Origin: a bacterium
GTDB taxonomy: Bacteria > Chloroflexota > Dormibacteria > Aeolococcales > Aeolococcaceae
DNA length: 64,000 bases
Reading direction: 5' to 3'
NCBI GenBank assembly: GCA_021803465.1
Contig: JAJZLL010000049.1
Coordinates: forward strand, 33,675 to 97,674
Under the pieces are notes generated by a model. That model searched no databases, was not told where the DNA came from, and saw only the letters and a list, made by a program, of their open reading frames with translations. This document shows positions 3,503 through 35,127 of this stretch, one piece after another. Both the position numbers and the translations under genes were made by a program. Position 1 is the first letter of the stretch. Each line of letters starts with the position of its first letter.

Positions 3503-3766
3503 TCATTTTTCACTCTCATCACGCGCATTCTGCGGGGAACGTGTCTTCCAGTAGGGTGTTTCCGTGTGCTCAACTGTCACAGTAAGCCCCTTTTCCCCTC
3601 CAAACGCGAGAGCTGGCAGGAGATGGTTGAGCACCTGCTCCGCAGTCGCCCGGAACACGTTCCCGGCTGAGGAAACCTTGAGCCAACCGTGCTCATCCCG
3701 GTAGTACAGCTCTGTCATGCGTCTTGCAGCCAGCCGTATGCAGTACGTATCGTTCGACATCTTCAT
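3503..3766 (-). CDS. Small hypothetical protein (~87 aa from an internal Met)
   Basis: ORF 3503..3844 has protein-like composition from MKMSNDTYCIRLAARRMTELYYRDEHGW... No recognised motif. Confidence 0.3.
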   Translation of the reverse strand: MKMSNDTYCIRLAARRMTELYYRDEHGWLKVSSAGNVFRATAEQVLNHLLPALAFGGEKGLTVTVEHTETPYWKTRSPQNARDESEK

Positions 3767-4015
3767 GTTCCGTCTCCTGGCATCGTTCCTTCCCGGCCTG
3801 GAGCTCCCTCTGCGCTCTTGGGACAATGCTCTGGCCCTCAGCATGATACATGGGCGGAGAAGGCATGTCCTCCGGAAGCATGCGCTCCCACACTGCGTTG
3901 TGCAGTGGCGTTACTGGCTTGCATACCCACTCTGCACGATCCCGCAACACATTGCAGCTTCTCTGGGATAATGACAGTGCATTTGCCACCACACAACCCT
4001 TGCTTAAGGCTCCAC

Positions 4016-5266
4016 ATGATCTTTCTCACAGACTTTCTCCGCGCTGATATCGTTGATATCAATCAGCAGCGTGCAGGAACGGTGAAGGATCTCATTGTCC
4101 GCATGCGCGAACCGTACCCCATTGTCACTGCGTTTGCCATTCGCGGTGGAAAGCACCTGCCACGGACAATCGACTGGGGTGCCGTACGAGCTGGTGAAAA
4201 CAATGAGCTCAGCCTCAATGTGCCAACTACTGCACTCCGCGAGTATCCACGGGCCAGCTCAGAGACGTGGCTCTCAAGGGACATCCTGGACCGGCAGATC
4301 GTCGACACGGATGGACGCCGCGTTGTCAGAGTCAATGATCTCCAGCTCCAGGTGGTCAATGGATCCCTGGTCCTCATCGGTGTCGACATTGGCACGCGCG
4401 GACTGCTCCGGCGTCTTGGCCTTGAGTCAACTGGAAGAAGACTGACTCGCGTGTTCCACCGGAACTTTCCCCACAAGATCATCTCGTGGGACGTTGTCGA
4501 CCCTGTGCGAAGCGACCAGTCATCCGTGAAGCTCCGCATCTCCCACCGCAAGCTTGGGAAGATGCATCCTGCGGACATTGCGGAGATCGTGAGCCAGCTC
4601 GGATCCACGGACCGGGCCGCAATCATCCAGGGCCTCGATGCGGAGACTGCTGCAGAGACGCTTGAGGAGACGAGTGACGAGATCCAGGCACAGATTCTCG
4701 CCACTCTCGACGACGAGCAGACAGCAGACATCCTCGAAGCGATGTCCCCAGATGAGGCAGCAGACTTCCTTGGAGATCTTCCGGAAGACCGGCGCGAAGA
4801 GCTCATCGCAAAGATGGAGCAGGAAGAGGCGGAAGATGTCACGGAACTTCTCACGTACGAGGACAACACTGCAGGCGGCCTCATGACCACAGAGTACGTC
4901 TCCGTTCCAAGCACACTCACTGCCGAGGAGACGATTGCGGAGATCCGTCTCCGTGCCCCAAGTGCAGAATCCATCTACTACGTCTATGTCATCGACGAGA
5001 TGGAACACCTGCTCGGTGTCCTGAGCCTCAGGGACCTCATTGTCGCTGCGCAGGACACGCCGATCACCTCCCTCATGATTGAGCGGGTAGTGGCCGTTCC
5101 AACTGACGCTGAGCCCGAGGATGTTGCAGCTGTCATCGCAAAATACAATCTCCTTGCCATCCCTGTCGTCGATGAGGAGGACCGCATCCAGGGAATCGTG
5201 ACGATCGACGATGCCATGGACACTGTCATGCCTCAGGGCATGCGCAGAAGGGCAAGGCTCTTGTGA
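4016..5266 (+). CDS. Soluble MgtE-like regulatory protein: PRC-barrel-like N-region, MgtE N-domain and tandem CBS domains, no membrane domain
   Basis: The first 109 codons of ORF 3689..5266 are Cys/Pro-rich junk. The plausible start is ATG 4016 (MIFLTDFL...). The MgtE_N-like acidic helical region (HPADIAEIVSQLGSTDRAAIIQGLDAETAAETLEE...) is followed by two CBS-like segments. The ORF stops with no TM helices. Confidence 0.75.
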   Translation: MIFLTDFLRADIVDINQQRAGTVKDLIVRMREPYPIVTAFAIRGGKHLPRTIDWGAVRAGENNELSLNVPTTALREYPRASSETWLSRDILDRQIVDTDGRRVVRVNDLQLQVVNGSLVLIGVDIGTRGLLRRLGLESTGRRLTRVFHRNFPHKIISWDVVDPVRSDQSSVKLRISHRKLGKMHPADIAEIVSQLGSTDRAAIIQGLDAETAAETLEETSDEIQAQILATLDDEQTADILEAMSPDEAADFLGDLPEDRREELIAKMEQEEAEDVTELLTYEDNTAGGLMTTEYVSVPSTLTAEETIAEIRLRAPSAESIYYVYVIDEMEHLLGVLSLRDLIVAAQDTPITSLMIERVVAVPTDAEPEDVAAVIAKYNLLAIPVVDEEDRIQGIVTIDDAMDTVMPQGMRRRARLL

Positions 5267-6615
5267 CAGGGCGGAAGGAGGCGGACAGCACTTCCCGGCG
5301 GCCAGCATCTTCCCTTCATCAGAAGGTCGTATCCCTCAGGGACCGTTCTCCCGCCCAGGGAATGGGGCGGAAACGGTTCACTCCAGGTCCAGTGCTCAGG
5401 TTTCTTGCAATTGTTGGACCAGGCATCATCATTGCGAATGCGGGAAACGATGCTGGTGGCGTTTTCACCTACAGCAACATCGGTGCGAAATACGGATATT
5501 CCCTGCTCTGGACATTCATCCCCATCACCATTTCGCTCGTGGTTGTGCAGGAAATGGTGGGACGGCTGGGATGCGTTACGGGAAAGGGACTCATGGATCT
5601 CATCCGTGAGCGCTTCGGTGTCAGGTGGACGCTGCTCGTATCCATAGTCGTCATCGTTGCCAATGGGGGAACGCTCCTTGCGGAATTCGCAGGTGTTGCT
5701 GGAGCCCTCGGTCTTCTCGGCATTCCAAAAACACTGGCCATTCTCAGTGCAGCGCTTCTCATCGCAATCATTGTCATGCGGGGAAACCGCCAGCTCGTGG
5801 AACGCATATTCCTTGCGCTCGGCCTGGCATTCTTCAGCTATTTCATCACTGCGTTTCTTGTACCCACACAATGGAAAACGGTTGGTCACTCCTTCCTTGT
5901 CCCTTCGCTATCCCATCCAGGGGTTGCTGGAGGAGCATTCCTCATTGATGTCATTGCACTCATCGGCACAACAATCACGCCGTACATGCAGCTGTACCTT
6001 CAGTCGTCAATCGTGGACAAGGGTTCATCCAGGGGGGATCTGCCGTATGTGCGCGCGGACATCATCTCCGGAGCAGCGTTCAGCAACATCGTGTCCGTAT
6101 TCATCGTCATCACGACTGCAGCAACGCTCTTCAACCATGGACTCGCAGGGATCGGCATCACGAGCACCAGCTCTGCCGCACGCGCACTGACACCACTTGT
6201 AGGCATCCATGCCCAGCAGCTCTTCGCAGTGGGACTTCTTGGCGCATCCCTCCTTGCTGCAGCAGTGCTCCCGCTGAGCACTGCCTTTGTCGTGTGCGAG
6301 GCGTTTGGCGCCGAACGGAGTGTGCAGCGAAAGTTCAGTGAGGCGCCCCTGTTCTTCATGCTCTTTCTTGGACTCATCATCATCACGGCTGGTGTGATGC
6401 TTGTCCCGCACATCTCCATTACTGGAGTCGCAATTGGCACACAGACACTCGACGGCGTGCTTCTCCCTGTGCTCCTCGTCTTCATCTTCATCCTTGCGAA
6501 TGACCGTGCGCTGCTGGGAAAGTACCGGAACTCCCTCCTGCTCAACATCATCTCCTTCATCACCATCATTGCCCTCATCGGCCTAGATGTCGTGCTCCTG
6601 ATGAACTCCCTGTAG
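5263..6615 (+). CDS. NRAMP/SLC11-family transporter of the NRMT (Nramp-related Mg2+ transporter) type
   Basis: 450-aa polytopic protein. TM1 reads GPGIIIANAGNDAGGVF, so canonical DPGN is DAGG. TM6 reads IGTTITPYMQLYL, so canonical A..MPH is T..TPY (Met lost). Alternative start at 5362. 4-nt overlap with the upstream MgtE-like gene. Confidence 0.85.
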   Translation: MTGRKEADSTSRRPASSLHQKVVSLRDRSPAQGMGRKRFTPGPVLRFLAIVGPGIIIANAGNDAGGVFTYSNIGAKYGYSLLWTFIPITISLVVVQEMVGRLGCVTGKGLMDLIRERFGVRWTLLVSIVVIVANGGTLLAEFAGVAGALGLLGIPKTLAILSAALLIAIIVMRGNRQLVERIFLALGLAFFSYFITAFLVPTQWKTVGHSFLVPSLSHPGVAGGAFLIDVIALIGTTITPYMQLYLQSSIVDKGSSRGDLPYVRADIISGAAFSNIVSVFIVITTAATLFNHGLAGIGITSTSSAARALTPLVGIHAQQLFAVGLLGASLLAAAVLPLSTAFVVCEAFGAERSVQRKFSEAPLFFMLFLGLIIITAGVMLVPHISITGVAIGTQTLDGVLLPVLLVFIFILANDRALLGKYRNSLLLNIISFITIIALIGLDVVLLMNSL

Positions 6616-6617
6616 TC

Positions 6618-6651
6618 GCACTCCTGCGACAGACTGCTGTCGCAGGAGTGC
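6618..6651 (+). terminator. Perfect 14-15-bp stem / 4-nt loop hairpin immediately after the NRAMP stop codon (no U-tract)
   Basis: gcactcctgcgacag-actg-ctgtcgcaggagtgc read directly from the sequence. Confidence 0.45.
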
Positions 6652-6686
6652 AGCATGCTCCTCCCATACACACGGAGGACATGCAC

Positions 6687-7517
6687 ATGAGCGCCACTGC
6701 TGAGACTGACATCACCGAAAATGCCTTTTCCCGCCTGACAGCAGGCATCCTCAACCTTTGCACCACTGACCGGTGGATGGAGTGGCTGACGATGGTGAAC
6801 CGCTTCCGCTCCTACAGCGCCCGCAACATCCTCCTCATTGCCTCGCAACGCCCTGAGGCGACACGGGTAGCGAGCTACTCCACCTGGAAGCGCCTTGGCC
6901 GTCAGGTGAGGAAGGGGGAGAAGGCGCTGTACATCGTTGCTCCCCTCCGACCCTCCTCCGAGGAAGGGGAAGACACGGTTCCCTTCGGTTTCCGGTACGT
7001 TCCGGTCTTCGACCTCGCTCAGACGGAGGGAGATGACCTTCCGAGTCCGTGTGAAGTTGTTGCAGCCCAAATCGACAGAAGCACCATCGAGGATGCGTGC
7101 CGCATTGCAGCATCTCTCGGCTTTGCCGTCACCTTCCAGGAACTTGGCAGAGACACGCATGGTGTATGCAGGCCCGCAGCGAAAGCGATCGAGATCAATG
7201 CAGGGGATCCTGAGGGACAGCAGCTCAAGTCCCTCATCCATGAAATCTCCCATGCCATGCTCCATGCTTCCTGTCCGGACAGGACGCGTGCGGAAATCGA
7301 GGCGGAGTCCATAGCCTACATTGTCATGAACCATCTTGGCATTGACAGCAGCCAGTACAGCTTCGGCTATGTCGCAACTTGGGGAAAAGGCGGAAACTCA
7401 GCACTTGAGGTGCTCCGCAAGTCTGCCACCACAATCCGGACGACAGCACTATTCCTCTGTGACCAGTTCGACAGGGGCGCTTCCCTGAGGATCGGACGGA
7501 GCGCGACCTGCGCGTGA
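6687..7517 (+). CDS. ArdC-like antirestriction protein: N-terminal ssDNA-binding DUF1738/ArdC_N domain plus C-terminal zincin metallopeptidase-like domain
   Basis: SYSARNILLIASQRPEATRVASYSTWKRLGRQVRKGEKALYIVAP matches the ArdC N-domain pattern. HExxH motif LIHEISHAMLH lies in the C-terminal half. GGAGG sits 8 nt upstream of ATG 6687 (track start 6648 is a GTG). Confidence 0.65.
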   Translation: MSATAETDITENAFSRLTAGILNLCTTDRWMEWLTMVNRFRSYSARNILLIASQRPEATRVASYSTWKRLGRQVRKGEKALYIVAPLRPSSEEGEDTVPFGFRYVPVFDLAQTEGDDLPSPCEVVAAQIDRSTIEDACRIAASLGFAVTFQELGRDTHGVCRPAAKAIEINAGDPEGQQLKSLIHEISHAMLHASCPDRTRAEIEAESIAYIVMNHLGIDSSQYSFGYVATWGKGGNSALEVLRKSATTIRTTALFLCDQFDRGASLRIGRSATCA

Positions 7518-11171: not shown

Positions 11172-12239
11172 ATGACAACGACACTTGTCGTGCTCCATGG
11201 AGACCAGACGGGAGAGGAACTCCTTAGCGAGACGCTCCGGCTTGCAGATCCCTCACTTCTCCACTGCGCATTCGAGCTCAAAGAGTATGACTGCTCGCTT
11301 GCACAGCGCAGGGCCACAGCCAATGGAGTCGTTCGCGATGCAGCTGATGCCATCCGAGAGTACCGTCTCGGACTCAAGGCTGCCACCATCACACCTGAGA
11401 AGGCGGATGATGTGGGGAGCCCCAACGCCCTGCTTCGCGAACGTATTGGAGCCCAGGTCATCGTCCGGACAGGTAGACCCATTCCCGGCATTTCCTCCTT
11501 GGGCTCAGTGGCAACACCGATAACTGTCGTGAGAATGGCCGTGGATGATGCGTACAATGCGAAAGAGTGGCGCGAGGAGCAGGACGGTAACATTGTCGCC
11601 TACCGGACTGAGCACATTTCCCGCACAACCTGCATGGCAGTGGCCCAAACAGCTTTCCACTATGCATCCTCGTGTGACGGCATTGTGTTCGGCGGTCCGA
11701 AATACACGGTTTCTCCCATCTATGAGGGACTCCTCAAGGAAATGCTTGATGCGGCCCACGAGACATGGCCCCATGTCCGCTACGAGCCACAGCTCATTGA
11801 CGCAACGTACGCACTCCTCCTGAGACAGCATGGAGCTCCTCTGGTGATACCCGCCCTCAACCGGGATGGGGACTGCCTTTCCGACCTTGTGCTGGCCCTC
11901 TTCGGATCCCTTGCCGGTGCAGAGTCGCTCATTCTCAGGTACGGGCCCTCCCATGAGAAGCCTGAGGTGGTAGTCGCGGAAGCACCGCATGGAACTGCCC
12001 CAACGCTGGAAGGAAAGAACATAGCCAATCCCATGGCCATGATCCTGGCCCTCGCCTCCACCCTCCAGTACGCGGACGACCCCAAGGCTGTCGATGCTGC
12101 TGGGCGCATACGGGCTGCCGTCAATGGTGTCCTCCACAATGGAATCCGCACTGCGGATCTTGGCGGCACAGCAACAACTTCGGGATTTGTCGATGCAGTG
12201 CTCGATGCGCTTATGGAGACCAGTCCCACCCTGTCATAG
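11172..12239 (+). CDS. Isocitrate/isopropylmalate dehydrogenase-family enzyme
   Basis: C-terminal GIRTADLGGTATTSGFVDAVLDAL and overall IDH/IMDH-like sequence. Probable start MTTTLVVLHGDQTGEEL. Confidence 0.8.
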   Translation: MTTTLVVLHGDQTGEELLSETLRLADPSLLHCAFELKEYDCSLAQRRATANGVVRDAADAIREYRLGLKAATITPEKADDVGSPNALLRERIGAQVIVRTGRPIPGISSLGSVATPITVVRMAVDDAYNAKEWREEQDGNIVAYRTEHISRTTCMAVAQTAFHYASSCDGIVFGGPKYTVSPIYEGLLKEMLDAAHETWPHVRYEPQLIDATYALLLRQHGAPLVIPALNRDGDCLSDLVLALFGSLAGAESLILRYGPSHEKPEVVVAEAPHGTAPTLEGKNIANPMAMILALASTLQYADDPKAVDAAGRIRAAVNGVLHNGIRTADLGGTATTSGFVDAVLDALMETSPTLS

Positions 12240-12291
12240 CAGCAGCGCCATTGCGTACAATCGCATCACACACGCGAGGAATCCCTCACAC

Positions 12292-13476
12292 ATGTCATCC
12301 AGTACAGCCCCTATGCGGATCTACCTTGACCACGCAGCCACCACTCCACCTTCCCGCGCAGCAGTAGCTGCGATGCAGCAGGCGCTCGAAGAATGCTGGG
12401 GAAACCCCTCCTCCATCCATGCTGATGGCCAGCATGCCCGCATGATCCTTGATGGAGCGCGTGACACCCTTGCTGCGTTCACGGGAACAGGCGCACGGAA
12501 TGTTGTCTTCACAGCATCAGGCACGGAAGCTGACAATCTTGCCCTCACAGGAATCCTTGGCCGCTGGGGCAGTTCACGTGGACAGCATATTGTCGTCAGT
12601 TCCATTGAGCATGAGGCAGTACTCTCCACTGCTGAGGCTCTCGCAGACAGTGGAGCTGCCGAAGTGACAATGGTGCATCCTGACCATGACGGAGTCATCC
12701 AGCCATCAGCTGTTGCCCAAGCGCTCCGTCCAGACACTGTGCTCGTCTCGATCATGTACGTGAACAATGAGACCGGTGTCATCCAGGACATCCCCGCGAT
12801 TGCACGGACAGTTCATGCTGCACGTGCGGAGACCTTTGTCCATACCGATGCAGTGCAGGGAGCAGGATACCTGCCATGCGACATGGAGTCGCTCGGTGTG
12901 GATCTCCTTTCCCTGAGCAGCCACAAGCTGTATGGTCCCAAGGGCGCTGGCTGCCTTGTTCTCCGGGACGGTGTCTTTGTCGCACCGGTCATCCATGGAG
13001 GAGGACAGGAGCGGAACAGAAGGTCTGGCACGGAAGCGATACCAGCCATCGCCGGTTTTGCTGCTGCAGTCCGGGAACTTGTCGAACATCGAAGCGCATG
13101 GTGCATGGAGATGGAAAGTCTCCGCACAATGCTCACTTCTGAAGTCAGGAAGGAGCTGCCCGGGACAATCATTCCCGGCGAACGGGCGCAGCGGGTGCCA
13201 TCATGCGCATCGTTCGTATTTCCCGGCATTAGAAATGAGCTCCTTCTCACACGGCTCGATGCTGCTGGCATCTCCGCTTCTGGGGGGTCAGCATGCTCTG
13301 CAGGCACTACCCTCCCCTCGCATGTGCTCACTGCAATGGGGTTTTCCGATGAAGATGCACGCGGTCTTCTCCGCTGCACACTCGGACATGCAACCACCCG
13401 TGAGGATGCCAGGGCTGCTGCAGCAGCCATTGTCGATGCAGTCCGTGCGCTCAGCACATCCATCGCGGACGCCTAG
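12292..13476 (+). CDS. Cysteine desulfurase (class V aminotransferase, NifS/IscS-like)
   Basis: MRIYLDHAATTP..., a SSHKLYGPKG PLP-lysine region and a C-terminal SGGSACS active-site Cys loop. Start taken at MSSSTAPMRIY; the upstream part of ORF 12094.. overlaps the IDH gene. Confidence 0.85.
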   Translation: MSSSTAPMRIYLDHAATTPPSRAAVAAMQQALEECWGNPSSIHADGQHARMILDGARDTLAAFTGTGARNVVFTASGTEADNLALTGILGRWGSSRGQHIVVSSIEHEAVLSTAEALADSGAAEVTMVHPDHDGVIQPSAVAQALRPDTVLVSIMYVNNETGVIQDIPAIARTVHAARAETFVHTDAVQGAGYLPCDMESLGVDLLSLSSHKLYGPKGAGCLVLRDGVFVAPVIHGGGQERNRRSGTEAIPAIAGFAAAVRELVEHRSAWCMEMESLRTMLTSEVRKELPGTIIPGERAQRVPSCASFVFPGIRNELLLTRLDAAGISASGGSACSAGTTLPSHVLTAMGFSDEDARGLLRCTLGHATTREDARAAAAAIVDAVRALSTSIADA

Positions 13477-13515
13477 CCACTGCAATTCCGACCTCAGCAC
13501 TGGTATATTCTTAGT

Positions 13516-14028
13516 ATGGGAATCAGATTTGAGACGGGCGGGGTCTCCCTTCGTGTGACGGAGCGCGCACACTACGCTCTCCGCATGATGACAGTCCTCG
13601 CCAGACACTATCCGTCACGGGAACTTGTGAACCTTCGGGTCATCGCCGAGGAGGAGCGACTGCCCCATCCGTTTCTTGAGCAGCTCTCCATGCCGCTTCG
13701 GCATGCAGGACTTGTCCACAGCGTACGGGGCGTGAAGGGAGGATACATCCTTGCCCGTGATCCCTCAGAGATCTCCCTGTATGACATCGTTGTGGCAACT
13801 GATGGGCCCATTGCGCCTGTCGACTGCCTGGCTCCCCAGTATGTCGAAGGCAGTTGTCCCATGGACAGCCACTGTGTCACAGCTGGCGTGTGGGGGGATC
13901 TCCAGCTTGCCATCATCGCTTTTCTCCAGTCGAAGTCTCTTGACCTTATTGCGGAAAGCACTCCCATCCGTCGTACGCCCCTTGGCACCATTGCTCTCGT
14001 TCCAGACACACAGGTGAATGCATCATGA
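13516..14028 (+). CDS. Rrf2-family (IscR-like) transcriptional regulator
   Basis: TERAHYALRMMTVLA HTH N-terminus and three spaced Cys (CLAP...C....C). 4-nt overlap with sufC. Alternative GTG start at ~13555. Confidence 0.85.
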   Translation: MGIRFETGGVSLRVTERAHYALRMMTVLARHYPSRELVNLRVIAEEERLPHPFLEQLSMPLRHAGLVHSVRGVKGGYILARDPSEISLYDIVVATDGPIAPVDCLAPQYVEGSCPMDSHCVTAGVWGDLQLAIIAFLQSKSLDLIAESTPIRRTPLGTIALVPDTQVNAS

Positions 14029-14804
14029 CTGTTCGCGGACTATCCATTGACAATCTCCACGTCCGGATCGGAGAGACGGACATCCTCCGTGGCGTGACCC
14101 TTGAAGTGCCAGAGGGAGAAGTGCATGCCCTCATGGGCCCAAACGGTTCTGGTAAGAGCACTCTTGCCTACACGATCATGGGACATCCTTCATACACCAT
14201 CACCCGGGGGACAGTCTCCCTCAATGGCACCTCCCTTGGCGAGCTTTCTCCTGAAGAACGGGCACGACTCGGACTCTTCCTCTCTCCCCAGTACCCGACA
14301 GCCATTCCTGGGGTCACTGTCGTGAATTTCCTGAGAGCTTCGCTCAGGGGTCTTGGCAAGGAGCTTCCTGCACGGGCTTTCCTCTCGAGACTTTCGGAAA
14401 CAATGGCATCCCTCCACATGGACGACAGTTTCCGTGGCAGATACATCAATGACGGCTTTTCCGGAGGCGAGAAAAAGCGGACGGAGATTCTCCAGCTCGC
14501 TCTTCTTGAACCAGTATTCGCAGTGCTTGATGAGACGGACTCCGGTCTTGATGTCGATGCGCTGCGTACTGTGGCCGAGGGCGTCAACCGGGTCCGGACA
14601 CCAGAACTTGGCATCCTGCTCATCACCCACTACAACAGGATTCTTGAGCACCTGAAGCCTGACGTGATCCACCTTCTCTACAAGGGACAGATCGTGGCTG
14701 CAGGAGGTCCAGAAATGGCTCAGGAAATCGAGAAGTCAGGATACGCTCCATTCATTGGAACGGGTGCGGAGCCAGAGCCGATGGGAGCACATCATGGCAA
14801 TTGA
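14025..14804 (+). CDS. sufC: Fe-S cluster assembly ATPase SufC
   Basis: Walker [13 protein letters not shown] signature [17 protein letters not shown] region typical of SufC. Confidence 0.9.
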
Positions 14805-16194
14805 CGCGGAACATCTCTCAAAGGAATACCAGTACGGCTTCCATGATGAGGACGCATCGGTGTTCCGCACGGAAAAGGGGCTTTCCGAGGAAGTCATCCG
14901 GGCCATCTCCACACGGAAGAAAGAGCCTGAGTGGATGCTCCGGTTTAGGCTCAAGGCATACAAGCACTTCATGGCACGGCCGATGCCTTCCTGGGGCGCA
15001 GACCTCTCCGGCATTGACTTTGACAATATCTACTATTACGTGAAGCCAACGGACCAGCAGGGTCGCTCCTGGGACGAGGTGCCCGAACAGATCAAGACGA
15101 CCTTTGACAGGTTGGGCATTCCGGAAGCGGAACGGAAGTTTCTTGCAGGTGTCAGTGCGCAGTATGACTCTGAGGTTGTGTACCACAATATTAAAGGAGA
15201 GCTTGAGAAGCAGGGCGTCATCTTCTCCGACTGCGACAGCGGCCTCCGTGACCATGAAGAGATCTTCCGCAAGTACTTCTCAACCATCATTCCCCCGAAT
15301 GACAACAAGTTTGCTGCACTCAACAGCGCAGTCTGGTCTGGCGGCTCGTTTGTCTATGTGCCGCCAGGTGTCCATGTCGACATCCCGCTCCAGGCATACT
15401 TCCGCATCAACAGCGACAACATGGGACAGTTTGAGCGGACTCTCATCATTGCGGATCGGGGGTCACATGTCCACTACATTGAGGGCTGCACAGCACCGAC
15501 CTATTCAGCAGATTCCCTCCACTCCGCTGTTGTCGAGCTCATTGCCCTCGAGGATGCGCACATCAGGTACACCACGATCCAGAACTGGTCAAACAATGTG
15601 TACAACCTCGTCACCAAACGGGCTGTCGCCCAGGCTGGAGCAACGATCGAATGGATCGATGGCAACCTTGGCAGCAAAGTCACAATGAAGTACCCTTCCA
15701 TCTACCTCATGGGGGAACGGGCTCATGGGGAAGTCCTCTCTGCAGCCTTTGCTGGAAGTGGCCAGCATCAGGATGCAGGTGCGAAGTGCATCCATGTTGC
15801 TCCGAACACAACAAGCAACATCGTCTCGCGATCCATTAGCAAGGGCACTGGCCGCACGTCGTACCGGGGCCACATCGTGGTCAACGAGAAGGCTGACAAT
15901 GTCAAGTGCAATGTCCGCTGCGATGCGCTACTTCTTGACGAAACATCGCGCAGCGACACGTATCCCTACATGGACATAAAGAATCCCAATGTGGAGATTG
16001 GCCATGAGGCAAGCGTGAGCAAGGTTGGCGAGGACCAGCTCTTCTACCTGCGGAGCAGAGGCATCTCCGAGCAGGATGCAACAGCACTCATTGTCAATGG
16101 ATTCTTTGAGCCCTTCGTGAAGGAGCTTCCGATGGAATACGCTGTCGAGCTCAACCGGCTTCTCGCAGTCCAGATGGACAATGCTGTCGGATAG
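14794..16194 (+). CDS. sufB: Fe-S cluster assembly protein SufB
   Basis: ~466 aa with SufB-like conserved core. Start [12 protein letters not shown] overlaps the sufC end. Confidence 0.9.
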
Positions 16195-16197
16195 GGG

Positions 16198-17436
16198 ATG
16201 ACCATGACACTTCTTGCCTCTCCCCCTCACATTACTGATGGCGCCTCCAAACGTCTTGCTGAGGGCAGCCAGGAATCAGTGAAGCTCAGGGCGGATGCCT
16301 GGGAAACGCTTCAGCATCTGCCTGTGCCAGCACATCAGGATGAGGACTGGAGAAGGACGGATCCTCGCCCCTTTCTTGCCCGGCTTGACCAGCCTCTTGC
16401 TGACACCAGCTATCTCGTCAGGAAAAGCTCTCTCCCAACCACGGGAGTGCACATCTCCCCGCCTGGTGCAGCAGCAGGAGCTTCGGACAGCGTTCCGGCA
16501 ATGGTGGCGCTTCCTGACAGCCTGCATTCCCGATATTTCACCACTCTCTGGAAGGCGCTCCATGATGGAGGAACTGCCATCGACATCGCTCCTGGCTCTG
16601 CTCCCGAAGCACCTGTAGAGGTCGAGCTCAGCAGCTCAGCATCCGGGTCGATGCACCTTCCTCTTGTCTTCATCCATGTTGGCGCCCATTCTTCACTGAC
16701 TGTGCATCTCCGTGAACGCTTTTCCCATGACAGCGCTCTCATTCTTGGTGGAACTGTCATCGTTCTCGATGATGGCGCCACCTGCACACTCATCCAGTCG
16801 ACCTCAGCAGCCCCTGATGCGCTCCTTTCTGGGTTTCATCACATCGTTCTCGGCAGAGATTCGTCCTTTGAGGGCGTTCTTCTCCGGAACGGGGGCGGGA
16901 GTTCCAAGCACTACCTTGACATAGATCTCGCTGGTGCTGGATCCACAGGCATTCTCACTGCGCTCGATCTGCAGAACGGGGATGTCCACAGGGATCTCCA
17001 GACCCTTCAGCTGCATCGAGCTCCTTCCACCACAAGCTCGTTCCTCGTCCGCAATGTTGTCGATGACCATGCCCACAGCGTCTACTCCGGGCTCATTGAT
17101 GTCTCCGAAGAAGCAGTGAAGACTGACGGTTACGTGCAGAACCGGAATCTCCTCCTCTCCAGGACAGCCCAGGCGGACAGCGTGCCAAGACTTGAAATCA
17201 AGGCGAATGATGTGAAGTGTGGCCACGGCACCACTGCAGGCCACGTAGACCACGAACAGCTCTTCTATCTCGAGTCCCGGGGCATCTCCAGGGAAACCGC
17301 AAGCCGCATGATCATCCAAGGCTTTCTTCTTGAGGGCTGCGCACATATGCGGTCTCCCGAAGCCCGGGCTGCAGCGGAAGCCTTCGTTGCTCAGTTTGCT
17401 CCTGACATGTCATCCCAGGAGAACCCCAATGAGTGA
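16198..17436 (+). CDS. sufD: Fe-S cluster assembly protein SufD
   Basis: 412 aa SufB/D-family C-terminal region, positioned after sufB. Confidence 0.85.
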   Translation: MTMTLLASPPHITDGASKRLAEGSQESVKLRADAWETLQHLPVPAHQDEDWRRTDPRPFLARLDQPLADTSYLVRKSSLPTTGVHISPPGAAAGASDSVPAMVALPDSLHSRYFTTLWKALHDGGTAIDIAPGSAPEAPVEVELSSSASGSMHLPLVFIHVGAHSSLTVHLRERFSHDSALILGGTVIVLDDGATCTLIQSTSAAPDALLSGFHHIVLGRDSSFEGVLLRNGGGSSKHYLDIDLAGAGSTGILTALDLQNGDVHRDLQTLQLHRAPSTTSSFLVRNVVDDHAHSVYSGLIDVSEEAVKTDGYVQNRNLLLSRTAQADSVPRLEIKANDVKCGHGTTAGHVDHEQLFYLESRGISRETASRMIIQGFLLEGCAHMRSPEARAAAEAFVAQFAPDMSSQENPNE

Positions 17437-17767
17437 CTGGATCCGCCTTGCTGATGCTGCAGACTGTCCCCCTGGGTATGCTGTCAGGTTTGAGATTGGC
17501 GACACCCTCATCGCATGCTTCAATGCAGCTGGCACATACTACGTCACGGATGACACCTGCTCGCACGCACAGGCATCGCTTGCGGAAGGCGACCTTGACG
17601 AGGAGCGCTGCACCATAGAGTGCCCGCTCCATGGCTCCTGCTTCGATCTCCGCACGGGAGAACCCCTCAGCCTTCCAGCAACAGAGCCTGTCAGCATCTA
17701 CCCTGTCCGAGCAGATGACAGCGGCATCTATGTCATGCTCGAGACAGCAGCGGAGCGCCACGCATGA
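17429..17767 (+). CDS. Rieske [2Fe-2S] ferredoxin-like protein embedded in the suf operon
   Basis: CSHAQASL...CPLHGSCF (CxH...CxxH Rieske ligands). Starts at MSDWIRL, overlapping the sufD end. Confidence 0.8.
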   Translation: MSDWIRLADAADCPPGYAVRFEIGDTLIACFNAAGTYYVTDDTCSHAQASLAEGDLDEERCTIECPLHGSCFDLRTGEPLSLPATEPVSIYPVRADDSGIYVMLETAAERHA

Positions 17768-19068
17768 CAACTTCTGCCCATCCTTTGGCCCACTTCGATG
17801 TCCAAGAGATCCGGAAGGATTTTCCCATCCTCAACGATGGCACCCGCACGCGGCCACTCAGCTACCTCGACTCCGCTGCCACTTCGCAGAAGCCCGCTGT
17901 CGTTCTCAATGCCATGCACGACTACTATGTGCATGCAAATGCGAATGTCCATCGGGGAGTCCATGAGCTTGGCGATGCAGCAACCTCACGGTTCGAGCAT
18001 GCCCGGCACAGGGTTGCACGATTCCTCAATGCGGATCCCCGTGGGCTCATCTTCGTCAGAAACACGACAGAGGCGCTCAATCTTGTGGCAACCGGCATTG
18101 CGCGCCAGGGTGGGCTCATGGCATCGGACCGTGTTGTTCTGTCCGTCCTTGAACATCACAGCAACATCGTCCCGTGGCAGCTGGAACGCTCCACACATGG
18201 CTTTGCCATCGCAGCAATTCCCCTCCATCCCGATGGTACTCTCGACATGGATGAAGCCAGGAAACTGCTTGCTCCGCCCACCAAACTTCTGAGCATCACG
18301 TATCAGTCAAATGTTCTGGGCACGGTGACTCCTCTCAAAGAGCTCATTGCCATGGCACATGAAGCAGGTATCCTTGTGGCAGTCGATGGTGCCCAGCGAG
18401 TTCCCCATGCCCGTGTCGACATGAAGGATCTCAACTGCGACTTCTTTGCAATGAGCGGACACAAGGTGTACGGCCCCATGGGAAGTGGCATACTCTGGGG
18501 CAAACCAGAGCTCCTTTCCTCGATGAGTCCCTTTCTCGGTGGGGGCAGCATGATCGACACAGTCACCTTCGAACGCACCACCTGGGCAGAACTCCCACAG
18601 AAGTTTGAGGCGGGAACCCCCGATGTTGCAGCGGCAGTTGGCCTTGCAGCTGCATGTGACTACATCGACTCGCTCACCTACGAGGCAATCGAAGCCCATG
18701 AGAAGGATCTCATGCAGCATCTACTTCACATGCTCGACTCTCTACCCTACATCGATGTCTACGGACCCAACGACCGCGAGCGCATTGTGGGAGCAGTCTC
18801 CTTCAATGTCCGTGGCGTGCACGCACATGATGTCGGCACCATCTGTGACCGTCACGGAGTCGCAATCCGAGTCGGACACCACTGCTGCCAACCGCTTATG
18901 CGGCACCTTGGAGTGCCAGCAACTGCACGGGCTAGTGTTGCCGCATACGTGACGCATGACGATATAGATAGCCTGGGCGAAGCGCTTGCGGATGTCGCAT
19001 CCATATTTGGACAAGTCATCACGCAGCACACATCGCCCGCTTCTCAAATGGAGCACCGCCATGCCTGA
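17764..19068 (+). CDS. sufS: Cysteine desulfurase SufS
   Basis: Group II desulfurase features: HKVYGPMGSG, C-terminal RVGHHCCQPLM active-site Cys. Confidence 0.9.
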   Translation: MTTSAHPLAHFDVQEIRKDFPILNDGTRTRPLSYLDSAATSQKPAVVLNAMHDYYVHANANVHRGVHELGDAATSRFEHARHRVARFLNADPRGLIFVRNTTEALNLVATGIARQGGLMASDRVVLSVLEHHSNIVPWQLERSTHGFAIAAIPLHPDGTLDMDEARKLLAPPTKLLSITYQSNVLGTVTPLKELIAMAHEAGILVAVDGAQRVPHARVDMKDLNCDFFAMSGHKVYGPMGSGILWGKPELLSSMSPFLGGGSMIDTVTFERTTWAELPQKFEAGTPDVAAAVGLAAACDYIDSLTYEAIEAHEKDLMQHLLHMLDSLPYIDVYGPNDRERIVGAVSFNVRGVHAHDVGTICDRHGVAIRVGHHCCQPLMRHLGVPATARASVAAYVTHDDIDSLGEALADVASIFGQVITQHTSPASQMEHRHA

Positions 19069-33711: not shown

Positions 33712-35127
33712 ATGGATGAAGTCACACGAGAACTCGACGGGGAAGTAACCTTTGATCCCCACCGGGTCTGGGAGATCGCACAGGAAGAGCTCAAATTCCA
33801 GTTGACGCGTCCCGGATACGAGACCTGGCTTGCGAACGCGAAGCTCGTCAATGCGGAAGGCGCTACCTACACGATCGGCGTTCCCACAAAGCTCGCACGT
33901 GACTGGCTCACAGAGCGGTATGCGCCACTCATCAAGGAGACTCTCGCAGGCATCCTTTCGAAGGAGTGCGACCTCGTCATCACTGTTGTCGACACTCCCG
34001 AGGCCCTTCCCATTCCCGATGATCCGCCAGTGCGGGAAGCTGAGGAGTTTTCCGCCTCCACATACGGCTCCCAGTTCGAAGATGACTCCAACGATGCAGT
34101 CATCAACCCAAACTTCACCTTTTCAACATTCGTTGTTGGCAACAGCAGCAGGTTCGCCCATGCAGCGTGCCTGGCTGTCGCGGAAGCTCCAGGGAAGGCG
34201 TACAATCCGCTCTTCATCTACGGCGGTGTGGGTCTGGGGAAAACACACCTCATGCACGCCATAGGAAACGCTGTGCGTGCGAAGACACGCCGTCCACCAA
34301 AAGTCGTGTATGTGACTTCAGAAAAGTTCACCAATGAGATGGTGCTTGCCATCCAGCAGGCCAAGACGAACGAGTTCCGGCAGAAGTACCGGTCCGTCGA
34401 TGTCCTCCTCATTGACGACATCCAGTTTCTTGCAGGCAAGGACCGAACCCAGGAGGAGTTCTTCCATACGTTCAATGCCCTTTACGAGGTTAGCAAGCAG
34501 GTCGTAGTCTCAAGCGACCGTCCACCGAAGGACATCCCCACGCTCGAAGACCGCCTCCGCAGCAGGTTCGAGGGTGGCCTCATCGCTGACATCAAGCCAC
34601 CGGACTTTGAAACCCGTCTCGCAATCCTCCACAGCAAACTCGGTGCGAAATCGTGGCTTGTGAGTGAAGAAGTGTGCGCATTCATGGCCCACCGCATCCA
34701 GAAGAACATCCGTGAACTCGAAGGTGCCCTCATCCGCGTTCTGGCGCATGCATCAATCAATCAGCGTCCTGTCTCCCTTGAGGAGGCACAGAGCATTCTT
34801 GCGGACATCATTCCCGATGCCACGCCCCTTTCCTCACTCAGCATTTCCGCCATCCAGCTCAATGTGGCTACGTACTTCGGCATTTCGCTTGAGGAAATGA
34901 ACGGGAAACGCCGTGACAAGCAGTTCGTCCTCCCACGACAGGTGGCGATGTACCTCTGCAGGGAAGAGACCGATGCATCCCTTCCCGCAATAGGAGCAGC
35001 ATTTGGCGGAAGGGACCATACGACTGTCCTCCATGCGATTGAGAAGATATCGGAACTCATGGGCGAGGATGAACGACTTGCATCGGATCTCGTCGCTCTT
35101 CAGACGCTTCTCCAGAACACACAGTGA
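33712..35127 (+). CDS. dnaA: Chromosomal replication initiator DnaA
   Basis: AAA+ Walker A GGVGLGKTHL, Walker B VDVLLIDDIQF, C-terminal DNA-binding signature (VAMYLCREETDASLPAIGAAFGGRDHTTVLHA). Confidence 0.95.
   Translation: MDEVTRELDGEVTFDPHRVWEIAQEELKFQLTRPGYETWLANAKLVNAEGATYTIGVPTKLARDWLTERYAPLIKETLAGILSKECDLVITVVDTPEALPIPDDPPVREAEEFSASTYGSQFEDDSNDAVINPNFTFSTFVVGNSSRFAHAACLAVAEAPGKAYNPLFIYGGVGLGKTHLMHAIGNAVRAKTRRPPKVVYVTSEKFTNEMVLAIQQAKTNEFRQKYRSVDVLLIDDIQFLAGKDRTQEEFFHTFNALYEVSKQVVVSSDRPPKDIPTLEDRLRSRFEGGLIADIKPPDFETRLAILHSKLGAKSWLVSEEVCAFMAHRIQKNIRELEGALIRVLAHASINQRPVSLEEAQSILADIIPDATPLSSLSISAIQLNVATYFGISLEEMNGKRRDKQFVLPRQVAMYLCREETDASLPAIGAAFGGRDHTTVLHAIEKISELMGEDERLASDLVALQTLLQNTQ

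Follow-up and report, generated by a model that had tools for sequence, protein, structure and literature searches.

A pore-less MgtE-like protein encoded directly upstream of a putative Nramp-related Mg2+ transporter in Candidatus Dormibacterota: a further operon of the MgtE fragment-nrmT type

Introduction

The NrmT clade of Nramp-related Mg2+ transporters (NRMTs) was named by Shin et al. 2014 (PMC4072509), who also noticed that most NrmT genes adjoin a gene for the cytoplasmic domain of MgtE alone (Fig. S5). For this MgtE fragment the authors proposed either a "cytoplasmic feedback regulation" or a chaperone role. Here, we analyzed a stretch of 64,000 nucleotides (nt) of the Candidatus Dormibacterota contig JAJZLL010000049.1 (hereafter named the window), in which two consecutive open reading frames (ORFs) on the + strand, ORF A (4016-5266) and ORF B (5263-6615), encode an MgtE-like protein without a pore and an NRMT-like transporter. 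This locus, which lies on the Candidatus Dormibacterota chromosome, is almost certainly an operon of the type already published, in which the gene for a cytoplasmic fragment of MgtE is paired with nrmT. An earlier note, made from the DNA sequence alone, had proposed that an MgtE-derived sensor was recruited here to regulate an unrelated Mg2+ transporter. This idea is the published hypothesis of PMC4072509 and is not new. Since both the pairing and the regulatory idea were published in 2014, the locus is one more example of this operon, from an uncultured soil bacterium.

In the literature searched, the part played by this MgtE-like fragment is uncharacterised, more than 10 years after it was first noticed. 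Our searches returned no follow-up on the nrmT-operon partner protein after PMC4072509, and no paper containing both "PRC-barrel" and "MgtE". The text of PMC4072509 does not mention the PRC-barrel half and the basic tail that we describe below for the partner, and the text of the paper on the NRMT of Eggerthella lenta, EleNRMT (Ramanadane et al. 2022, PMC8806188), does not discuss a partner protein. In the present analysis, we show how the two genes are organised, which domains and binding-site motifs their products contain, which ligands are conserved, and that the synteny of the locus is conserved.

Results

The downstream gene encodes a transporter of the NRMT clade

The product of ORF B (5263-6615, + strand), which has 450 amino acids (aa) when translated from the GTG codon at 5263, matches the Nramp family (PF01566, E=2.3e-79). 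Its best solved relative is EleNRMT (7qia; E=1.8e-95), to which it is 42% identical over 407 columns, whereas the canonical MntH structures, including DraNramp, were matched at 1e-23 or weaker. The nearest homologues of both the ORF A and the ORF B proteins were found in Candidatus Dormibacterota metagenome-assembled genomes.

Residues of ORF B were mapped by HMMER alignment to EleNRMT. The first and sixth transmembrane helices (TM1 and TM6) carry the sequences AGNDAGG and GTTITPYM (T236-T-I-T239-P-Y241). In TM1, D63-A-G-G66 aligns with D55-A-G-G58 of EleNRMT, where the canonical motif is DPGN. In TM6, T236 corresponds to EleNRMT T224, a residue required for the interaction with Mg2+ (PMC8806188), and T239 occupies the canonical Met position, at which EleNRMT has Ala227. 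Both canonical His positions of helix 6b are filled by other residues, Y241 and L246, EleNRMT having a Trp at the position of Y241. E141 in helix 3 and Q394 in helix 10, the equivalents of EleNRMT E133 and Q379, are kept. The substitutions found in ORF B are those described for NRMTs by Ramanadane et al. 2022. The earlier note had read DAGG in place of DPGN in TM1 and T..TPY in place of A..MPH in TM6, and this reading was accurate, the canonical DPGN and MPH motifs being absent from the alignment. Its statement that the selectivity Met is lost, as in NRMTs, also stands, with the precision that Met is replaced by Thr and not by Ala. From its sequence, ORF B is thus assigned to the NRMT clade of the SLC11 family.

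To place these motifs among relatives, we used 80 NRMT loci obtained from a scan of GTDB species representatives, 75 of which include enough upstream sequence to be assessed for a neighbouring gene. The DAGG positions of TM1 are invariant in 23 relatives, and AGNDAGG is found in TM1 at 79 of the 80 loci. The Met position is more variable, with Ser at 45 loci, Thr at 28 and Ala at 7. Three Clostridium NRMTs encoded in operons with an M-box riboswitch have exactly the TM1 and TM6 motifs of ORF B.

A likely 4-nt overlap of the two genes is shared with the closest orthologues

If GTG 5263 is the start of ORF B, the two genes overlap by the 4 nt GTGA, in which this codon lies over the stop codon of ORF A (TGA, 5264-5266). 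Only two starts are possible for ORF B, GTG 5263 and ATG 5362; the second is chosen by other gene callers and leads to a 417-aa product (P0122). In L001 and L002, the orthologous loci closest to the window, GTGA and the Shine-Dalgarno-like sequence GGGCAAGG that precedes it show no variation. The 100 nt that follow GTGA contain zero indels across these two loci, in which ATG 5362 is not conserved, and an Arg-rich N-terminus of about 35-50 residues is present in most relatives. These features make GTG 5263 the likely, but not certain, start of ORF B. With this start, the 4-nt overlap proposed in the earlier note holds, and it is kept in L001 and L002. It is restricted to the window and these two orthologues: the other loci show same-strand adjacency, with gaps mostly of 11-125 nt. 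The Arg-rich N-terminus was also considered as a docking site for the partner and rejected, as it is present in NRMTs that have no partner and absent from partnered Clostridium NRMTs.

The upstream gene encodes a five-part soluble protein

ORF A (4016-5266, + strand) encodes a protein of 416 aa without a pore. Its ATG at 4016 matches the consensus start of its homologues (MIFLSD) and its frame closes at TGA 5264-5266, 11 residues past a pair of CBS domains. A longer frame that opens upstream, at 3689, matches no family. Searches against Pfam identified MgtE_N at residues 183-284 (3.4e-29), the CBS pair (1.5e-15) and a PRC domain (26.6 bits for a cut-off of 21.2), with no match to the PF01769 membrane domain. 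The TIGR00400 mgtE model gave 197 bits, under its cut-off of 232.75, and was covered only from position 23 to 252 of 450. Among solved structures, ORF A is best matched by the cytosolic domain of MgtE from T. thermophilus (TtMgtE; 2yvy, E=1.8e-42). In public sources, pore-less homologues of ORF A are often called "magnesium transporter". Since proteins of this type score too low for TIGR00400 and have no membrane domain, this name is a mis-annotation, and the locus draws attention to its recurrence among soluble proteins.

From its N- to its C-terminus, ORF A is made up of a PRC barrel, a PRC-like barrel, an MgtE N domain, a CBS pair and a short basic tail. The first module (residues 1-85; 4016-4270) matches PF05239 at residues 2-61 and is all-beta in the AlphaFold2 (AF2) model, with predicted local distance difference test (pLDDT) values of 88-97. 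The second one (residues 86-175; 4271-4540) is modelled as a beta-barrel with an inserted helical hairpin (helices 127-147). The MgtE N domain follows (about residues 176-285; 4541-4870; PF03448, 3.4e-29) and aligns with residues 22-124 of TtMgtE. It is followed by the CBS pair (about residues 286-405; 4871-5230; PF00571) and by the tail PQGMRRRARLL with the stop codon (5231-5266), which stands where MgtE has its acidic plug helix and its pore. The earlier note had described a protein consisting only of the MgtE N domain and the CBS pair. The lack of a pore is borne out by this analysis. The word "only" is not: residues 1-175, or 42% of ORF A, form tandem PRC-barrel-like modules that do not belong to MgtE, and the basic tail comes in addition.

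The AF2 models have a pLDDT of 84.8 for the whole of ORF A and of 84.5 for residues 1-176, where the two beta-barrel modules are predicted, the second with its hairpin. Foldseek searches with the N-terminal model retrieved proteins that contain PRC barrels: the best match was to CdpB1/CdpB2 (E=2.4e-4), and reaction-centre H subunits, RimM and MTH1859 were retrieved as well. Module 2 alone is sub-threshold against PF05239 (13.5 bits, E=0.076; 17.4 bits in a homologue), so that the tandem PRC arrangement is probable but not proven, and on the basis of the model module 2 is probably a second PRC barrel. Six of its residues (D92, Q94, D97, D108, D124 and R132) are invariant in soluble and full-length relatives. 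The C-terminal 230 residues of the model align by Foldseek with the Mg2+-bound cytosolic domain of MgtE (2yvy) with a root-mean-square deviation of 2.0 A over 231 columns and a TM-score of 0.86, normalised by target length. In the tail, the pattern P-x-x-[W/V/L/M]-R-x-R is kept in the partners of Dormibacterota, Acidobacteriota, Actinomycetota and Clostridium, whereas full-length MgtE proteins extended by PRC modules have an acidic helix (VMEEESAEDL...) at this position.

Ligands of the MgtE sites Mg4, Mg6 and Mg7 are kept in ORF A

To evaluate the Mg2+ sites, the ligand list of Maruyama et al. 2018 (PMC5882242) was transferred to ORF A by alignment to 2yvy, and conservation was counted over 36 soluble relatives. 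The Mg7 ligand E59 of TtMgtE corresponds to E214 of ORF A (4541-4870 region) and is E or D in 36 of 36 relatives. For Mg4, D91 and D247 correspond to D246 and D399, each being D in 35/36, and for Mg6, D95 corresponds to D250 (D in 35/36). Mg5 is half kept, with N378 in place of D226 and D402 as the equivalent of D250. Mg2 and Mg3, formed in TtMgtE by E258 and D259, have no counterpart because the plug helix is absent. The conservation of the Mg4, Mg6 and Mg7 ligands makes it plausible, as far as the alignment goes, that ORF A senses Mg2+ at the N/CBS interface. Among the ATP-site residues of MgtE (taken from PMC5529423), Y170, R187 and D188 are kept in ORF A as Y322, R339 and D340; the residues that contact adenine are considered in the Discussion.

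PRC-extended MgtE channels are the likely source of the partner

A search with a concatenated partner + NRMT query retrieved full-length MgtE channels of about 600 aa that combine PRC, MgtE_N, CBS and PF01769, and that are 36-46% identical to ORF A over its entire 416 aa. This PRC-extended MgtE subfamily is widespread (P0247, P0253, P0282 and about 80 more) and includes members from Armatimonadota, Dehalococcoidia and Actinomycetota, among others. The existence of such channels suggests that the partner likely originated by loss of the pore from one of them, and not by excision from a canonical MgtE. By its sequence, ORF A looks like the entire cytoplasmic assembly of a PRC-extended MgtE that has lost its pore and in which the plug helix has been replaced, and full-length PRC-MgtE channels are its likely ancestors. 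The reading of ORF A as the sensor part of MgtE alone, as the earlier note had it, is right in substance, with a PRC-extended MgtE as the likely source instead of a canonical one.

The same search recovered four apparent Rosetta-stone fusions of Nramp with MgtE_N/CBS (P0241-P0244). They were rejected as frameshifted gene models from high-GC assemblies, since out-of-frame stretches rich in R, P and G were found at the junction and inside the membrane region.

The partner gene precedes most NRMT genes

Hidden Markov models for four parts of ORF A were built from its homologues and run on all ORFs of the NRMT loci. An ORF with the PRC-PRC-MgtE_N-CBS arrangement was found upstream and on the same strand at 64 of the 75 assessable loci, which cover Dormibacterota, Acidobacteriota, Actinomycetota and Clostridium, that is, four phyla. 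The association of the partner with NRMT genes is strongly non-random, and the co-occurrence check called for by the earlier note came out in favour of the pairing. A conserved third gene between the two was also sought where the gap is large and rejected: the ORFs inserted at these loci are mutually unrelated, so there is no third conserved component.

The identity of the residue at the Met position was compared with the presence of the partner. All seven loci with Ala, as in EleNRMT (L016, L017, L025 and L033-L036), lack a partner within 4 kb, and among the assessable Ser/Thr-type loci the partner is missing in four only. Six of the seven Ala-type NRMTs fall in one neighbour-joining clade, so these absences represent at most two independent events, and the link between Ala at the Met position and the lack of a partner is a lead only.

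Three distant soluble MgtE_N-CBS proteins were also observed. One of them (P0290, L085) is encoded directly upstream of an Nramp gene. The other two, P0251 (515 aa; L083, 4001-5548) and P0322 (498 aa; L086, 4001-5497), have uvrB/uvrA and an hpaB-like gene as neighbours and no adjoining Nramp gene, which indicates that pore-less MgtE sensor proteins also exist outside nrmT operons.

No M-box riboswitch precedes the operon in the window

The upstream intergenic region (3845-4015, + strand), the presumed site of the operon's promoter, has no M-box riboswitch. Across the whole window, zero Rfam families were matched at gathering score. Between 3300 and 4200, the M-box (RF00380) was absent even at E<=10, and the two Rfam matches obtained were at chance level (E>7). 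The M-box was also absent from 13 Dormibacterota and Actinomycetota loci. As a positive control, RF00380 was detected at 148-153 bits before the gene pair in three Clostridium loci (L061, L067 and L073).

Genomic environment of the operon

A dnaA gene is located at 33712-35127 (+ strand; Bac_DnaA, 1.5e-71, together with the DnaA N and C domains), and the minimum of the cumulative GC skew coincides with it, with a turn at about 34-36 kb. The window thus probably spans the chromosomal replication origin, and the presence of dnaA and of the skew turn identifies it as chromosomal. Upstream of the operon, a divergent ORF of 113 aa (3503-3844, - strand) matches no Pfam or NCBIfam family and is a candidate gene. 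Directly 3' of the NRMT gene, the product of a gene at 6648-7517 (+ strand) matches the ArdC N-terminal domain (PF08401, 1.2e-10) and also has a region that resembles HExxH metallopeptidases, a combination that is usual on conjugative elements. This neighbour also occurs on a second metagenome contig (L081). Further downstream (12094-19068, + strand), two genes of the SufB/D family and two class-V aminotransferase genes of the cysteine-desulfurase type are present, and the stretch resembles a common SUF locus for the assembly of iron-sulfur clusters.

Discussion

From the features of the two proteins, we infer a substrate, the sensing of Mg2+, a physical interaction and a direction of regulation. 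Judged by its similarity to EleNRMT and to the NrmT proteins of Clostridium, ORF B would most likely import Mg2+, and probably Mn2+, without proton coupling. Mg2+ would close the N/CBS clamp of ORF A, and the closed protein could then dock on the carrier via its PRC modules and/or its basic tail and, acting in trans, lower the uptake by ORF B. The outcome would be a post-translational feedback in a lineage without the M-box riboswitch. Taken as a whole, an operon of known type that combines a Mg2+ carrier with a Mg2+-dependent negative regulator is the explanation that we favour, with modest confidence. For the partner considered by itself, a role as Mg2+-dependent negative regulator of the transporter is possible but somewhat doubtful. 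A more specific version is that ORF A would be a detachable trans-acting gating module derived from a PRC-extended MgtE, in which an Arg-rich tail replaced the plug helix and in which closure of the clamp by Mg2+ would allow the tail and the PRC barrels to dock into or onto the cytoplasmic vestibule of the LeuT-type NRMT. We regard this version as speculative and unlikely.

Several observations weigh against regulation of the transporter by the partner. In the experiments of PMC4072509, the transporters of Clostridium needed no partner to restore Mg2+ uptake, co-expression of the partner gave no further gain in Mg2+ rescue in the case of A. capsulatum, and the transporter of this species behaved mainly as a Mn2+ transporter, with full rescue of a mutant defective in Mn2+ uptake. 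The literature found contains no demonstration of an interaction between partner and NRMT, or of regulation. Within ORF A, the plug-helix sites Mg2 and Mg3 are missing, one of the Mg5 ligands is an Asn, and the adenine contacts are altered (N203 to I355, F227 to L379). At the level of genomes, 11 of the 75 assessable NRMT loci have no partner within 4 kb, the apparent fusions bring no Rosetta-stone support, and P0251 and P0322 are encoded away from any Nramp gene. Lastly, the Thr at the Met position of ORF B, where the sole structurally characterised NRMT has Ala, means that its selectivity could differ.

Part of this evidence fits a transporter that mainly imports Mn2+, or another divalent metal, with a partner that senses or handles that metal or has a role unrelated to Mg2+. 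The A. capsulatum protein, a member of the NrmT clade with an adjoining MgtE fragment and no M-box, rescued Mg2+ auxotrophy at low-millimolar Mg2+ only, while its rescue of the Mn2+ mutant was full (PMC4072509), and EleNRMT transports Mn2+ as well as Mg2+ (PMC8806188). The lack of an M-box in the window and the Thr at the Met position would be in line with a preference for Mn2+. However, ORF B has the same TM1 and TM6 motifs as the Clostridium NRMTs under M-box control, its T236 is the counterpart of the EleNRMT residue needed for the interaction with Mg2+, and the acidic ligands kept in the partner are those of the Mg2+ sites of MgtE; we consider a mainly Mn2+-importing system rather unlikely. 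The partner might also not gate the transporter at all, and act as a co-expressed Mg2+ buffer, a chaperone, an assembly factor or a sensor with another output, its PRC barrels binding for example another protein or the membrane, in which case the linkage would reflect co-regulation only. The function of the transporters without partner in heterologous hosts (PMC4072509), the partner-less NRMT loci and the soluble MgtE_N-CBS proteins encoded beside uvrB/uvrA or hpaB are compatible with this. So is the nature of the PRC barrels, which are general protein-interaction modules and whose best fold matches here are the archaeal division proteins CdpB1/B2. Against it stand the tight same-strand adjacency across four phyla, the 4-nt overlap in the clade of the window, and a conserved, family-specific tail in place of the plug helix, which suggests a dedicated interface and not a free buffer. 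A non-gating partner appears unlikely.

The probability that ORF A is an artefact, whether an mgtE pseudogene left by truncation or frameshift or the result of a faulty assembly, is negligible. Such an artefact could be suspected from the database label "magnesium transporter" and from the frameshifted gene models that do arise in the ORF A family. It is refuted by the homologues, by the tail and by the next gene. Among 8000 scored candidates, 7772 reached E<=1e-10, and nearly all of the 120 matches listed have about 416 aa and the same domain set; as the homologues also end at the same place, ORF A is not a truncated or frameshifted mgtE. The C-terminal tail and the stop are kept across four phyla, and the next gene begins inside the stop codon of ORF A. 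The earlier note had considered that ORF A might continue into an MgtE membrane domain in a corrected frame. It does not: as the space downstream is taken up by the NRMT gene, PF01769 is found there in no frame.

The locus brings no new principle. Knowledge of the PRC modules, of the conserved basic tail and of the likely descent from PRC-MgtE usefully refines the picture of an operon that was already described. The favoured explanation, that of a Mg2+ carrier with a Mg2+-dependent negative regulator, would nevertheless have consequences. If a portable Mg2+ sensor does act in trans on a differently folded transporter, this would clearly exemplify how a regulatory domain can be reused as a module, and it would explain how an uncoupled Mg2+ carrier is controlled in lineages without the M-box. 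If the tail and the PRC barrels do dock on the NRMT, a single Mg2+ sensor would have passed from one transport architecture to another that is unrelated to it. The five-part composition of the partner, its likely PRC-MgtE ancestors and the basic tail common to four phyla may serve as guides to experiment.

Comparison with known systems

The operon of the window shares its gene order, with the fragment gene directly upstream, with the mgtE-fragment/nrmT operons of C. acetobutylicum (Ca_c0685) and A. capsulatum (ACP2976-ACP2977). The TM1 and TM6 motifs of ORF B are also those of the Clostridium members with an M-box that were examined here. The M-box itself is present in the Clostridium members and absent from the window, as it is from A. 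capsulatum. The partner in the window is a single gene of 416 aa, whereas that of C. acetobutylicum is split in two. The Dormibacterota lineage and the 4-nt gene overlap also distinguish the locus from the operons described in 2014.

EleNRMT (PDB 7QIA/7QIC; Ramanadane et al. 2022) is the closest solved structure to ORF B. Both proteins have DAGG and the equivalents of T224, E133 and Q379, and in both the two His residues of helix 6b are replaced. They differ at the Met position (Thr239 in ORF B, Ala227 in EleNRMT) and at the His position occupied by Tyr in ORF B and by Trp in EleNRMT, and the N-terminus of ORF B is longer and Arg-rich.

With T. thermophilus MgtE (PDB 2YVX/2YVY), ORF A shares the fold and sequence of the N domain and of the CBS pair, including the ligands of Mg4 (D91/D247), Mg6 (D95) and Mg7 (E59). 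ORF A lacks the plug helix, and with it Mg2 and Mg3, as well as the membrane pore, and with it Mg1, and adds a PRC-barrel N-terminus of 175 residues and a basic tail. The PRC-extended MgtE proteins (P0247, P0253 and P0282) have the same arrangement of PRC, PRC-like, MgtE_N and CBS parts as ORF A. In these channels, the CBS pair is followed by an acidic plug helix and by the pore domain PF01769, whereas ORF A stops after its basic tail of 11 residues.

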